Assembly (NCBI GenBank): GCA_944392865.1
Contig: CALXYD010000001.1
Location: forward strand, 2,705-66,704
Direction of reading: 5' to 3'
Source: an uncultured Alphaproteobacteria bacterium
GTDB lineage: Bacteria > Pseudomonadota > Alphaproteobacteria > RF32 > CAG-239
DNA: 64,000 bases
Shown: piece by piece, positions 29,725 to 34,505 of the stretch
How positions within the stretch are numbered: the stretch's first letter is position 1
Layout of the letters: each line of letters opens with the position of its first letter
The notes under the pieces: generated by a model
What the model was told of the DNA's origin: nothing
What the model saw: only the letters and a program-made list of their open reading frames with translations
The model's database searches: none
Position numbers and translations under genes: made by a program

Positions 29725-29790
29725 AAAAAAAGCAGCCGTTTTACCGACTGCCGCTTGCATTGGTAATGCTTGCCCCGCGATTTACGAACT
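29725..29790 (-). repeat. Degenerate att-like repeat, copy 1 (core ATTACCA plus terminator hairpin)
   Basis: Minus strand: ttcgtaaatcgcggggcaagcATTACCAatgcaaGCGGCAGTCGGTAAAACGGCTGCttttttt; homologous to the region immediately 3' of tRNA-Glu. Confidence 0.6.
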
Positions 29791-29887
29791 GAAATATGTT
29801 GAATTTTATATTTTTTCATGTTAAAGATAACTTACGAAACATATTATTAACTAAACCCCATCGAAAAGGCGATGGTTATATTTATGT

Positions 29888-30472
29888 ATGAATATAGAAG
29901 AAAAAATTGAACAATGGAAAAATGAGCATTTTACCTCATTACGTGAGCTCAATCCGGTTACAAAGAAAAATTATCAGGCAATTGTCAGAATGTTGCTTGA
30001 AAAAGAGCAAATGTCCAAAGAGAGACTTATTCAACTGGCGCATCGTATTAAACCTTTGATGTATCCCAAAGGCGAAAGTGCGCTGCCATATAAGTTATAC
30101 TGGACTAAGCCGGTGCCTCTTACTCAAAGTTTTTACTTCAATTTTGATGATGCCTCTGTAGTTCAAAACGAAGAAGGTGAGATATTAGAGGTTAATGATT
30201 TGGTAAAAATCTGCGAGTTTACATGCTATCATCGTTATGGTGGATATTATGGTTGCTTGCGTCCTGGTATGGATGAGATCATACAGCAATTCCCTGAATA
30301 TCTGTTAACAGATGAAAAAACGGAATATGCCGTTGAAGTGATTTTCCCGTCTCTGAATTTGCACGATGTCTATGATTCCGTTATAGATAGGCACGTATCA
30401 ACAGTAAGAGTGTATCAGCTAAAAAACGGCTTGCCGCTGGAACTTCGCAATCAAGAAGTCATTTATGATTAG
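29888..30472 (+). CDS. Hypothetical protein
   Basis: 194-aa ORF with a ribosome-binding-site-like sequence upstream; no recognisable motif. Confidence 0.45.
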   Translation: MNIEEKIEQWKNEHFTSLRELNPVTKKNYQAIVRMLLEKEQMSKERLIQLAHRIKPLMYPKGESALPYKLYWTKPVPLTQSFYFNFDDASVVQNEEGEILEVNDLVKICEFTCYHRYGGYYGCLRPGMDEIIQQFPEYLLTDEKTEYAVEVIFPSLNLHDVYDSVIDRHVSTVRVYQLKNGLPLELRNQEVIYD

Positions 30473-30662
30473 TAACTTTAGTTCTTCAATTGGGAAACCA
30501 ACTGAAGAACTTTTTTTATTAAATTCTTTCGCAAAAAATTATCCTGATTCAATAACCTCAAAATTAAATAATATATTGAAAAACAAAGGATTACCATCAA
30601 ACGAGTTCGGAAAATTCTCCCAAAATGCAATTTTCAAAAAACAAACATTCGAACTCGGTTAA
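30465..30662 (+). CDS. Doubtful small ORF (65 aa); its 3' third is encoded by the att-like repeat flank
   Basis: The ORF overlaps repeat copy 2 (30603-30745), so it may be fortuitous. Confidence 0.15.
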   Translation: MISNFSSSIGKPTEELFLLNSFAKNYPDSITSKLNNILKNKGLPSNEFGKFSQNAIFKKQTFELG

Positions 30663-30745
30663 ACGTTTGATTTATAAAAGAAAAACGGCAGTTTTTATAC
30701 CTGCCGCTTGCATTGGTGATGCTAACCTCACAACTTACGAATAAA
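30603..30745 (-). repeat. Degenerate att-like repeat, copy 2 (flank, terminator hairpin CGGCAG..CTGCCG, core ATCACCA, 21-nt arm)
   Basis: Minus strand: ttcgtaagttgtgaggttagcATCACCAatgcaaGCGGCAGgtataaaaaCTGCCGttttt, then a flank similar to gttcggacaaattg...aaacatccgaac. Confidence 0.65.
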
Positions 30746-30784
30746 AAATAAAAGGGATGAGTCTTAATCATCCCTTTTATTTTA
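30745..30784. terminator. Bidirectional hairpin terminator
   Basis: AAAAGGGATGAgtcttaaTCATCCCTTTTATTTT. Confidence 0.6.
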
Positions 30785-30817
30785 GTAGCGCTCTAACCAG
30801 CTGAGCTACACACCCAT
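30785..30817 (-). pseudogene. tRNA-Val 5' half fragment (positions 1 to about 33 of the tRNA only)
   Basis: gtagcgctctaaccaGctgagctacacacccat matches 27241-27273 (the 5' acceptor strand, D-arm and start of the anticodon stem of tRNA-Val) with 1 mismatch; the 3' half is replaced by the hairpin and the att-like repeat. Confidence 0.7.
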
Positions 30818-31061
30818 CATGCGGGGAGTTTTATAACAAACTTTTTTGTTTATGGCAAGAGTTATTTTGACTATGAACAATTTTTTTTAGCAGCTTTTAT
30901 ATAGTCCGTATGTAAGAGAGAAGAAAAAAATTAAAAGGTATGGGAAAATTAAAAGAGAGATGAATTTTTCATCTCTCTTTTTTTGTGGTTTGCAGCATTT
31001 TTTGCGGGGTGCCGCATTTTGGGCGGGGCTGCATTGTGCGCTTTAAACGGATGCTTTTCGG

Positions 31062-32492: not shown

Positions 32493-33210
32493 ATCGACCG
32501 TCCTCTCTATTTTTGGCTAAACCAACAACCGAAGGCTCTTGTTTTTTTAAGCAAAATTTAGCTATTTCTAACTCCAATGTTTTTTCACACACTCTATTAA
32601 CAATCGGATAATTTTTCTTCCACTCTTTTTTATCCCAATTATCTTCCTTAGACTGTTCATTCATTTTATCGGAAAACATATTATTTTTTATATCACTGAC
32701 GGCAAATTTGAAAATATTAGATTTTGATGCATTTTTCCAATCTAAGATTTTTCCATCCGGAGATACAATCGGCTGATTTTCACCCCACATCCCCACACCG
32801 ACATCCATCTCGACACAACCTAAACACTCTTGAACAACAGTATCATCAAAGTATGATGCATTTAATTCTCTCATTAGGCGTTTAAATGCATCAATTTCCG
32901 GACGCTTAAAAACATTTTCTTTTCCACCCAAAGAACCATCCGCATTATAAAAATATCGCTCACCAAATAAATCCATTTTCTCTATATTTTTCTTTTTTTG
33001 TTCATACGATTTATTATTGTCATTCAATGAATTCATAGCTAAAGATACCATTGACATCGCATACAAAAGTCTTGATGCTTTGTAATTATCTTTAAAATAG
33101 TTAGGGTTATGAGATATTTCTTTAGTAACTGCTACCGCCTCTTTAAAAACCGGCAATAAATTATGCTCCATTATTTTAAAGGGGTCTTTTGAGAGTTCAT
33201 TTTGTGACAT
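32491..33210 (-). CDS. Hypothetical protein, family A (long form, with a ~130-aa C-terminal extension)
   Basis: Its N-terminal 110 aa are paralogous to 27489..27824; 239 aa. Confidence 0.55.
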   Translation of the reverse strand: MSQNELSKDPFKIMEHNLLPVFKEAVAVTKEISHNPNYFKDNYKASRLLYAMSMVSLAMNSLNDNNKSYEQKKKNIEKMDLFGERYFYNADGSLGGKENVFKRPEIDAFKRLMRELNASYFDDTVVQECLGCVEMDVGVGMWGENQPIVSPDGKILDWKNASKSNIFKFAVSDIKNNMFSDKMNEQSKEDNWDKKEWKKNYPIVNRVCEKTLELEIAKFCLKKQEPSVVGLAKNREDGR

Positions 33211-33292
33211 TCAAATTATCCTTATCAATTATATTGTATATTTGGATAATAGCACATTTTGTAAAGCTTATCAATAAAAATTAATAATCAGA

Positions 33293-33440
33293 AAGTTCGG
33301 ACAAATTGAAAAAATGACTATTTTTGAAAATTAAACATCCGAACTTGATGAAAGCCTTGGAAATAAAAGAAAAAGCAGCCATTTTCATGACTGCTGTTTG
33401 AATTGGTGATGCTTAACTCACCGTTTACGAGTTGGTTTAT
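33293..33440 (-). repeat. Degenerate att-like repeat, copy 4 (full-length: arm, ATCACCA core, terminator, ~100-nt flank), abutting the stop of 33443..34249
   Basis: About 85% identical to 34319-34436 (the native 3' flank of tRNA-Glu plus the last 7 nt of the tRNA). Confidence 0.75.
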
Positions 33441-33442
33441 TT

Positions 33443-34249
33443 CTATTTTGTTATTTCCTTTGTTTTCATCATATTAAAAATATTAGTCTGTGTATTTATT
33501 TTTTCGTTGTTTTGAATACGAATAAATTTATCAAAATCCATAACTTTAGAACTATCTATTTCTCCTTCATTTGCCCATTGTGTGAGTCTTTCCATATTTT
33601 CTGGAGTTGATATGATTGCCACAAGTCTTTCTGGATTTTTTCTAAAATCAACATTACATATCATCCATCCCGAAGGAAGATTTTTATATTCTTCTTGATC
33701 TTTAGCTGTAACAACAAATATACATCCAGCTGGATAACAAAAATCATCAACCAAATGCATATAATCTTTTACAGACGTGTGTATTGTATCTTTGTTTGTA
33801 ACAGAAATTTTTCCAGGAGGATCATAGCTTGTAGAATGCCCAAATCTGTCTGCACCGGAAGAAATTCCGCCCGTTAATATAATGTTTTTGGCACCCATTA
33901 TAGATGTTCCGTGGAAGCATAGCTTTTTTTCTTCAGGTATGCTATCCGCAATTTTATTAGGAAACTCTTCCAGTTGTCTTGTTCTGTAAGCAATATCTTC
34001 CTTTGAGGGAGCTCGCAAAAGTAAGGATTCTTCTTTATAATTTTTTAAGCGATATTTATCTTCATATAAAATTTTTTCATACTCTTTAATAATAAATTTA
34101 TTTCCAGATTCAAGAGCTTCTTGATATTCTTTTTCTACAGCACTTATATCTTTTGCTAATTTTGCTATATTTAAAGGAACCTGTTTCTTTTTTCTTTCAA
34201 AATTACTGCAACTACTTTGAAAATATTCTTCAATTATAGTATCTTCCAT
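33443..34249 (-). CDS. Candidate ADP-ribosyltransferase (R-S-E class motifs) with an N-terminal coiled region; otherwise hypothetical
   Basis: Y88-R89 (AYRTR), S139-T140-S141 followed by an aromatic (HSTSYD) and Q185-E186-E187 (DQEEY) sit at spacings of 47-50 and 44-46 residues, as in the cholera-toxin/C3 R-S-E ADP-ribosyltransferases; also CFHGTSIMGAKNIILTGG. 268 aa. Confidence 0.4.
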   Translation of the reverse strand: MEDTIIEEYFQSSCSNFERKKKQVPLNIAKLAKDISAVEKEYQEALESGNKFIIKEYEKILYEDKYRLKNYKEESLLLRAPSKEDIAYRTRQLEEFPNKIADSIPEEKKLCFHGTSIMGAKNIILTGGISSGADRFGHSTSYDPPGKISVTNKDTIHTSVKDYMHLVDDFCYPAGCIFVVTAKDQEEYKNLPSGWMICNVDFRKNPERLVAIISTPENMERLTQWANEGEIDSSKVMDFDKFIRIQNNEKINTQTNIFNMMKTKEITK

Positions 34250-34318
34250 TGTGCCACTCCTAATCTAATGAAATTATAGTAGCATAATCTGTTTATCTAG
34301 TCAAAGTTTTTAATAAAA

Positions 34319-34429
34319 AAGTTCGGACAAATTGAAAAAATGACTATTAAAGAAAATGAAACATCCGAACTCAAGATAAGCCTTGGAAATAAAAGAAAAA
34401 GCAGCCATTTTCATGACTGCCATTTGTAT
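34319..34429 (-). repeat. Native 3' flank of tRNA-Glu (terminator plus ~100 nt); the master copy of the att-like repeat family
   Basis: aaagttcggacaaattgaaaaaatgactat...ccttggaaataaaagaaaaaGCAGCCATtttcATGACTGCcatttg; on the minus strand the hairpin is followed by TTTTTCTTTTATTT. Confidence 0.7.
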
Positions 34430-34505
34430 TGGTGATCCCAACGGGATTCGAACCCGTGTTGCAGCCTTGAGAGGGCCGCGTCCTAGGCCTCTAGACGATG
34501 GGACC
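34430..34505 (-). tRNA. tRNA-Glu (anticodon CTC), 76 nt with encoded CCA
   Basis: Hand-folded: acceptor GGTCCCA/TGGGATC, D-stem GTCT/GGAC, anticodon stem CGGCC/GGCTG with loop CTCTCAA, T-stem ACGGG/CCCGT with loop TTCGAAT; closely parallels E. coli tRNA-Glu. Confidence 0.85.

Follow-up and report, generated by a model that had tools for sequence, protein, structure and literature searches.

A tRNA-Glu-anchored array of small recombinase-less gene cassettes in an uncultured gut alphaproteobacterium, probably mobilised in trans by a large serine recombinase

Cis-mobilisable elements (CIMEs), and the tandem accretion seen at the attachment (att) sites of integrative and conjugative elements (ICEs) and integrative and mobilisable elements (IMEs) under the ICESt1/ICESt3 model (PMC5704250), are the closest concept to the locus described here, an array of repeats at the 3' end of a tRNA-Glu(CUC) gene in a 64-kb stretch of DNA from an uncultured alphaproteobacterium (contig CALXYD010000001.1; the whole 64-kb stretch is referred to as the window). 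From comparison of its sequence with some 90 related loci, each designated by an L-number, we read the array as a tRNA-Glu-anchored stack of four non-autonomous cassettes, CIME-like or integron-like, that are probably mobilised in trans by a large serine recombinase (LSR). As with CIMEs, the units lack a recombinase, keep both att sites and stand in tandem at the 3' end of a conserved gene or tRNA, and accretion would proceed by successive site-specific integration, with a related autonomous element able to mobilise them; their ends are common to elements that encode an LSR, and in L094 such an LSR element is followed directly by a cassette. The anatomy of the cassettes would also be compatible with a CIME-like origin through internal deletion. 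They differ from CIMEs in being ~1-kb single-gene cassettes, in arrays of up to at least six, that are spread through dozens of species of uncultured gut Alphaproteobacteria, and in their strongly conserved arm and their LSR.

In staphylococci the Ccr LSRs insert cassettes at the 3' end of a housekeeping gene, rlmH (orfX), which stays intact, and among the members of the resulting tandem arrays are pseudo-SCC elements that lack ccr and are flanked by short direct repeats. These SCCmec/SCC (staphylococcal cassette chromosome) composite islands would appear to be the nearest analogue among LSR systems, although here a tRNA is targeted, by cassettes of far smaller size. IMEs with a serine recombinase usually integrate inside genes, which they disrupt (PMC5704250), and an LSR family found at tRNA 3' ends without disruption is therefore unusual.

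The array also recalls an integron, in that mostly single-ORF (open reading frame) cassettes bounded by recombination sites are stacked in one orientation at a fixed primary site that is regenerated on insertion, and carry a similar cargo of GNAT acetyltransferases, methyltransferases, hydrolases and unknowns. However, no IntI was found, there is no attC hairpin site, the crossover is not at G/TT and the primary site is the end of a tRNA; furthermore, whereas integron cassettes are promoterless, co-oriented and expressed from Pc, each cassette here carries its own promoter-like site and terminator and its ORF may lie in either orientation. An attC site is an imperfect palindrome of the form R''-L''...L'-R', 57-141 bp in length, with crossover at G/TTRRRY. 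Reading the ~26-nt arm as an attC site was tried and rejected: its GTTAAGC does fit GTTRRRY (R'), but crossover is excluded there because the tRNA keeps GTTGGG, and so stays intact, whilst the arms keep GTTAAGC, the exchange falling downstream within ATCACCA. The system is not an integron.

The nearest analogues among tRNA-linked islands are the tycheposons of Prochlorococcus, of which 910 out of 937 use tyrosine recombinases and carry replication modules, and in which the repeats are ~40-nt partial tRNAs (10.1101/2020.12.28.424599). Like the array described here they are anchored at tRNAs, with successive integrations pushing older elements outward, and a minority carry LSRs; partial tRNA repeats and remnants are left behind. 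At the present locus the tRNA is likewise intact and the end of it, the 7-nt ATCACCA, is repeated distally, and some related loci carry longer partial tRNA-Glu ends; however, the autonomous members found carry an LSR rather than a tyrosine integrase, and tycheposons are not described as including a family of intact, recombinase-less 1-kb cassettes that have a dedicated arm of non-tRNA sequence. Literature searches found no description of this cassette system.

Five repeats in the same orientation lie at the 3' end of tRNA-Glu(CUC), with no others in the window. A repeat search returned them as a 134-nt family (34303-34436, 33277-33410 at 87% and 30587-30720 at 63%) and a 57-nt family (33381-33437, 32434-32490 at 88%, 30691-30747 at 74% and 29738-29794 at 61%), an nhmmer profile made from copies in other genomes matched these five places only, with E-values of 7e-08 to 2e-19, and 100 shuffles put the number of chance matches to the arm and core pattern at 0, all of which agrees with the five-repeat array that a preliminary description of this DNA had proposed. 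A profile of the ~110-nt flank matched copies 1, 2 and 4 only. The shared core is the 7-nt ATCACCA, equivalent to nt 70-76 of tRNA-Glu including the CCA, and lies at 34430-34436, 33404-33410, 32457-32463, 30714-30720 and 29761-29767; in the internal copies a conserved arm of ~26 nt adjoins the core on one side, and three copies have a terminator hairpin and a ~110-nt inverted-repeat flank on the side opposite the arm. Both core and hairpin had been assigned to every copy: the core is indeed present in copies 1-4, but in the fifth it is mutated to ATTACCA, and the hairpin of copy 3 retains its 5' half only.

Read along the minus strand, each unit runs in the order core, hairpin, ~110-nt flank, promoter-like sequence, ORF, ~26-nt arm and next core, and across the family a cassette holds one ORF, rarely two, in either orientation. 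The arm has the consensus nAGCTCGTAAACCGTGAGTTAAGC, written also as aaccaactcgtaaacNgtgagttaagY (~26 nt). The flank is marked by a 7-bp inverted repeat, (G/A)AGTTCG...CGAACT(C/T), with its halves ~40 nt apart and an outer pair that covaries (GC in 15 copies, AU in 9). It is conserved in at least 34 copies, those of LSR elements included, and extends into a further block of ~50 nt (TTCAAT..GAGTT.GAATCTCG..GGTCT.GGGAT). Two RNA-based interpretations were rejected: the arm forms no consistent stem as a tRNA T-arm mimic or RNA element, and Rfam at gathering thresholds gave only tRNAs in the window and eight loci. As for a structured RNA in the flank, RNAalifold gives the 7-bp inverted repeat only, with one covarying pair.

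The array is headed by tRNA-Glu(CUC) itself (34430..34505, minus strand, as are all array features below unless stated; ARAGORN, and Rfam tRNA at 56.5 bits, with a profile match to model positions 30-71), the 3' end of which reads ...GGGATCACCA, likewise given as ...CCCGTTGGGATCACCA, and its last 7 nt are the attB-like core 1 (34430-34436). Cassette A (33404..34429, 1026 bp core to core) has a terminator hairpin (34400-34421), an inverted-repeat flank (34277-34390), a promoter-like TTGACT-17-TACTAT (34276-34304) followed by TAATTT and then AGGAG, a 268-aa gene (33443-34249), the arm CCAACTCGTAAACNGTGAGTTAAGYATCACCA (33411-33437) and core 2 (33404-33410); its flank reads ATACAAATGGCAGTCATG... 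Cassette B (32457..33403, 947 bp) repeats this layout with a hairpin (33374-33395), an inverted-repeat flank (33276-33364), a 239-aa gene (32491-33210), an arm (32464-32490) and core 3 (32457-32463). Two copies had been said to abut stop codons, which holds for the 239-aa gene, where the arm follows the stop directly, but not for the 268-aa gene, where it follows after 6 nt.

Cassette C (30714..32456, 1743 bp) has a truncated hairpin, a DUF218 gene (31062-31943; Pfam DUF218, 7e-09, in accordance with its first identification), a fragment of the 5' half of a tRNA-Val (30786-30818), a 16-bp perfect hairpin (30745-30783), a degenerate arm (30721-30744) and core 4 (30714-30720). Cassette D (29761..30713, 953 bp) has a hairpin and inverted-repeat flank (30558-30713), a 194-aa gene that lies on the plus strand (29888-30472), opposite to the array, a degenerate arm (29768-29792) and the mutated core 5 (29761-29767). 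Beyond it the B'-like distal chromosomal flank (29719..29760) retains a terminator hairpin (29731-29752) without an inverted-repeat flank, and leads into the promoter region of a 594-aa ankyrin-repeat gene. The inverted-repeat flank is thus retained in A, B and D, with C lacking it and half of its hairpin; A, B and D have a GC content of 31-35%, against ~42% for the window and ~47% in the central kilobase of C. A halved hairpin in copy 3, divergence of arms 4 and 5 and a mutation in core 5 mark the two distal sites as degenerate, which fits with newer units adjoining the tRNA. With no LSR in the window and two distal sites decaying, the window array is a partly fossilised stack.

Some further observations concern the array and its surroundings. 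The tRNA-Val fragment just before the arm of cassette C, 33 nt in length (GGGTGTGTAGCTCAGCTGGTTAGAGCGCTACT), matches the 5' half of the L002 tRNA-Val gene at 97% identity, and the window's own tRNA-Val (27197-27273) lies 3.5 kb downstream of it; fragment and hairpin together may record the capture of higher-GC host DNA into a cassette. A 65-aa plus-strand ORF (30465-30662) overlaps the inverted-repeat flank of cassette D (30558-30673) and is probably not a gene. The ankyrin-repeat gene (27897-29681, minus strand) has, together with copy 5, given way in L002 and L003, both of them 98-99% identical strains, to an unrelated 361-aa gene (L002 15405-16490), and variability therefore reaches beyond the recognisable array. 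Elsewhere in the window (44861-51000), GAATCACCAA comes immediately after a tRNA-Pro(GGG) (44784-44860) and gives way to AT-rich DNA of 33-38% GC; there is no match to the hairpin, arm or flank, and this may be a coincidence or an unrelated island.

A scan of 185,579 species genomes with the arm and core pattern GAGTTAAGYATCACCAWTNCAA gave 45 loci, one of them a chance match and the other 44 in metagenome-assembled genomes of uncultured Alphaproteobacteria or 'proteobacterium' from human, Hadza and roe-deer gut; the cassette family is confined to uncultured gut Alphaproteobacteria. Conservation extends to ~14 nt upstream of the pattern searched, and copies that do not match the pattern still have TCGTAAA..G..AG..AGC preceding ATCACCA. 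The arrays are co-oriented, with from 1 to at least 6 units spaced 0.5-2.7 kb apart. In 14 of the 44 loci a tRNA-Glu falls inside the fetched sequence, and in all 14 that tRNA-Glu (CUC or UUC) heads the array in the same orientation with its 3' end forming the first core. A protein identical to the 268-aa product of cassette A is found in at least three contexts in gut metagenomes: at the same AcrB/tRNA-Glu(CUC) locus (L002 and L003), in a single cassette after tRNA-Glu(UUC) in another neighbourhood (L001 and five similar loci), and after the arm of a preceding element in contigs that hold no tRNA (L007 and L008). The arm and core were also considered as a phage attP; a viral scan gave 10 chance-like matches, none with the flank architecture, and the reading was rejected.

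Two variations on the array theme were seen in related loci. Some copies have a GC-rich insert of ~85-100 nt between the terminator hairpin and the inverted-repeat flank (L007 7575-7672, also L028, L033, L043, L047 and L053), which reads gcg.cg.tacg.aa...ctacttgcgcga.caactaacctttgc...ctaagagaag, is present as its reverse complement in L061, and looks like a small nested repeat element, with no Rfam match in L007 and L061, the insert-bearing loci that were scanned. Ahead of some array sites, degenerate tRNA-Glu-like ends (...caatctcgttgggATCACCA, ...aatcccgttgggATCACCA) take the place of the arm, as at L022 1-69 and 2690-2796, L025 1200-1330, L037 and L032; those of L022 and L025 follow a GC-rich stretch of ~100 nt for which ARAGORN and Rfam gave no match.

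The boundaries of the cassettes were defined by all-against-all BLAST of the loci. Segments that are 92-99% identical recur across species and contexts, starting at an offset of 0 to -6 of the core and ending +9 to +28 past the next core, examples being L001/L007 (98.5%), L022/L034 (95%), L024/L061 (98%) and L028/L033; one cassette is found behind three different upstream arms in L002, L034 and L057, and the second cassette of L029 is the first of L056. Similarity to cassette A begins at core offset 0 across contexts. To its left lies tRNA-Glu(CUC), tRNA-Glu(UUC) or an arm, with the junctions differing from position -1 of the core, and to its right lie at least four different sequences, which differ from core position +8 (ATCACCA followed by A or by T), so that exchange is confined to the 7-bp core. 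Cassette C has a 98% identical copy in L046, and cassette D has a copy 91-93% identical that adjoins the tRNA in L049.

Closely related loci had been expected to vary by whole modules and to include an empty tRNA-Glu site, and both are found. L002, a 98.6%-identical locus that covers 19.7-40.6 kb of the window with flanks 98-99% identical, has an extra 807-bp cassette (with a 192-aa gene) between the second and third cassettes, which is absent from the window and L003; at tRNA-Glu(UUC) L001 has one cassette only; and in L091 the tRNA-Glu(CUC) site is unoccupied, ATCACCA being followed only by a terminator without an inverted-repeat flank. The proposal that repeated integration rebuilds the tRNA with an arm brought by each element survives as to modular stacking, but what is shared is limited to the last 7 nt, and each cassette has its arm at the distal end. 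Taken together, the units are very likely discrete site-specific cassettes.

The recombinase associated with these arrays is an LSR of ~535 aa with Resolvase, Recombinase and Zn_ribbon_recom domains, found beside arrays in L007/L008, L042, L046, L050, L065 and L026. It has 702 relatives, nearly all of them unnamed and the few named ones from Alphaproteobacteria, none in IMG/VR, and its only structural match is to the resolvase domain of 3guv, there being no close solved relative. In L072, L080, L007, L070, L083 and L094 the LSR lies inside an att-bounded element. That of L072/L073/L075 is 10.1 kb long and sits at tRNA-Glu(CUC), in the order tRNA-Glu(CUC), ATCACCAAT, hairpin, inverted-repeat flank, DUF3768, MmeI-like restriction-modification (RM) enzyme, 164-aa ORF, LSR (8178-9785 in L072), retron-type reverse transcriptase (RT; PADLOC RT-Toprim I-C, 2e-192) and ttagctcgtaaaccgtgagttaagcATCACCAAT; that of L080/L081, at tRNA-Glu(UUC), shares this layout over 11.3 kb and includes a type I RM system as well as an OLD/HEC-04-like ATPase. 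The ORF upstream of the LSR is 164-170 aa long, and in the 10-11 kb elements one to three cargo genes, often for defence, stand between the LSR and the arm; in L007, L070, L083 and L094 one or two cargo genes separate the LSR from the arm and core beyond it, and the cassette directly after the LSR element in L094 encodes MarR and metallo-beta-lactamase (MBL) proteins. The termini of the 10-11 kb elements are those of the cassettes (tRNA core, hairpin and flank at one end, arm and core at the other), and the cassettes therefore look like LSR elements from which the backbone has been deleted.

The site also changes with the enzyme. The ATCACCA arm goes with LSRs of at least 73% identity, and a sister arm, GTTCGTGAATTGCTAGCCAAGCCCCACCA, which is colinear with it but has a different core (CCCACCA), goes with LSRs of 64-65% identity (L076 and L086); in L086 (14300-14470) an inverted-repeat flank of this kind comes after the sister arm, in L076 the sister arm is repeated in an array (15036, 16928 and 18368), and a 45%-identical LSR relative overlaps a tRNA-Met. 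Since arm and core change with the LSR clade, the site tracks the enzyme, and on this comparison of sequences the LSR is probably what acts on the cassettes. The preliminary description had remarked on the missing integrase or excisionase; what is missing is most likely an LSR rather than a tyrosine integrase or an excisionase.

Between the LSR gene and the arm there is a slot that holds a different cargo gene in each element (L072 9778-11511, L083 11614-13356, L080 12794-14527, L070 11620-13050 and L094 5493-7865). Its cargo includes a retron RT-Toprim of type I-C and an OLD/HEC-04-like ATPase (PADLOC) as well as ApeA and an AAA_13 ATPase (Pfam), with RM systems upstream, and the slot looks like a hotspot for defence genes.

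In the mechanism that we propose, the LSR would join an attB-like site (tRNA-Glu 3' end, core and flank) with an attP-like site (arm, core and flank), with strand exchange taking place inside ATCACCA. Each element would import a flank that resembles the one it displaces, so that insertion would regenerate the attB-like site at the tRNA and leave an attP-like site distally; it is the similarity of the right-hand flanks on all elements that would allow insertion to recreate both types of site. The tRNA end would then be open to the next element, which would displace the older ones outward, and excision would be the same B x P reaction, comparable to attI x attC of integrons. Small cassettes without an enzyme would move either by an enzyme supplied in trans or along with an adjacent LSR element, and those of the window would rely on such an element in another part of the genome or in the community. 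To judge from their shared termini, the small cassettes probably arose from LSR elements by internal deletion; internal gains and losses may be RecA-mediated.

Several points weigh against this mechanism. The link between LSR and site is one of association, and the 64-kb window itself contains no LSR. Neither a metagenome scan nor the viral scans yielded a circle junction or an excised form. Classical serine integrases do not recombine attL-like or attP x attP pairs, and under these rules an internal gain or loss such as the extra cassette of L002 needs either relaxed specificity or homologous recombination between the ~48-nt repeats; a 7-bp block of identity is furthermore more typical of tyrosine recombinases. 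The ~110-nt inverted-repeat flank is conserved and the model gives it no role, and in L001 the first ~90 nt of the flank of cassette A are of a different variant, a mosaic which indicates that homologous exchange within flanks also occurs. In JGI metagenomes a search for a circle junction or further contexts of cassette A found one locus only, with the same context as L001, and two 10-kb contigs of LSR elements (L093 and L094), looked at as possible excised forms, do not have a circle-junction arrangement.

The mosaic flank of L001 and the 48-nt shared junction at the L002 indel, which is compatible with recombination between direct repeats, are also what would be expected if homologous recombination alone were responsible, the repeat being a terminator or regulatory module and the ~170 nt conserved on both sides allowing RecA to swap, add or delete the genes between, as has been proposed for the minimal mobile elements of Neisseria. 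The flanks are long and 75-90% alike, and no recombinase was found in the window. Nevertheless we consider this unlikely: where the same cassette is found in tRNA and arm contexts the similarity switches exactly at the 7-bp core, a homology too short for RecA, the arm is conserved across ~40 species without an obvious role in termination, and LSR-bearing elements use exactly the same ends.

A tyrosine integrase that has escaped detection, P4-like or tycheposon-like, could instead drive the islets, with the LSR as cargo or as the integrase of an unrelated element. A tRNA 3' end is the typical target of a tyrosine integrase and a 7-bp core the typical overlap region of a tyrosine recombinase; serine-recombinase IMEs are reported to insert within genes (PMC5704250), and tycheposons show tandem integrations separated by partial tRNAs (10.1101/2020.12.28.424599). 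Yet phmmer searches with four diverse seeds (lambda Int, P4 Int, XerC and XerD) found no tyrosine recombinase among 1,289 six-frame ORFs from the window, L001-L010 and L021-L065, and the precomputed Pfam lists for L001-L010 and L070-L094 contain no Phage_integrase or tyrosine recombinase. That the window is without a recombinase, as first described, is borne out by the same four seeds and an LSR seed, none of which matched there, and by the absence of a recombinase from the Pfam list of L002. With the LSR as the only recombinase enclosed by the same termini, and the site changing with its clade, a tyrosine enzyme seems improbable.

An equally improbable explanation is decay in situ, in which the modules would be stumps of full-size LSR elements, CIMEs in the strict sense, that never move as 1-kb units, and the cassettes shared between loci would reflect the transfer of whole arrays. 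Deletion of the backbone of an LSR element yields exactly the anatomy of a cassette, and the distal copies of the window are decaying. Identical or near-identical 1-kb cassettes are, however, found in different species with different neighbours on both sides and at different positions in arrays, as with that shared by L029 and L056, and the gene of cassette A has at least three left and at least four right partners; such variety needs either many independent identical deletions or the movement of single cassettes. That the repeats are a dispersed REP-like (repetitive extragenic palindromic) or terminator family which clusters here by chance, a suggestion to which the terminator-like hairpin in the copies lends some colour and which the preliminary description had raised against itself, is hardly credible, since the 64 kb hold five copies at the tRNA-Glu locus and no scattered intergenic ones, and copies elsewhere form co-oriented arrays that tRNA-Glu heads wherever it is present.

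Two further candidates were tried and rejected. An IS200/IS605-like single-stranded DNA element would have hairpins at both ends, and the two hairpins here are unrelated, with no TnpA seen; as a Xer/dif-like site the repeat matches the XerD arm by eye at 6 of 11 bases, with no Xer gene nearby.

The cargo of the family was surveyed in 52 non-redundant cassette ORFs, from a summary of the top 25 and a full scan of the ten largest. Four encode GNAT acetyltransferases and two each encode SAM methyltransferases, MBL-fold proteins, Abhydrolase/DLH proteins and MarR regulators, with one each of an SDR, a nitroreductase, a SnoaL protein, an ArsP permease, a hexapeptide transferase and a phosphodiesterase; there are weak matches to M10/M12-like zinc proteases, many ORFs fall in no family, and no recombinase appeared in the top-25 summary or among the ten largest. 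This spectrum resembles the cargo of integrons. In the window the cargo of cassettes A, B and D has no Pfam, NCBIfam or PADLOC match, and the identification of the 268-aa protein as a candidate ADP-ribosyltransferase is not upheld, its top Foldseek match, to DarT, being non-significant (E = 0.38). A 63%-identical homologue of this protein occurs in L091 (5700-6813) as an ordinary gene on the 5' side of the tRNA-Glu(CUC) with the empty 3' site.

If the LSR does act on these cassettes, the system might, and we advance this tentatively, be a serine-recombinase counterpart of the integron, in which an LSR clade uses a tRNA-Glu end as its permanent primary site and the ~33-nt arm and core as the cassette site; with both types of site regenerated on insertion, the capture, stacking, excision and reshuffling of self-expressed single-gene cassettes would then be one reaction independent of a recombination directionality factor, and arrays built on other cores would be operated in parallel by sister LSR clades. 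What sets the system apart is its serine recombinase, its anchoring at a tRNA, a dedicated arm of 26 nt, cassettes of very small size and their spread throughout a clade.

The slot between LSR and arm is a pointer to the defence systems that these elements carry, and the naturally paired LSRs and short att sites, including the sister pair with another core, are candidate tools for genome engineering. For annotation, tRNA-linked islets that appear 'integrase-less' can belong to an active family rather than being debris. Should the proposed mechanism be true, the arrays would constitute a gene-capture platform that is integron-like in its logic and cargo, driven by a serine recombinase and anchored at a tRNA; it would span a whole clade of uncultured bacteria from human and animal guts, the mobile elements of which are all but undescribed, and would account for the spread of identical 1-kb genes between the species of that clade.

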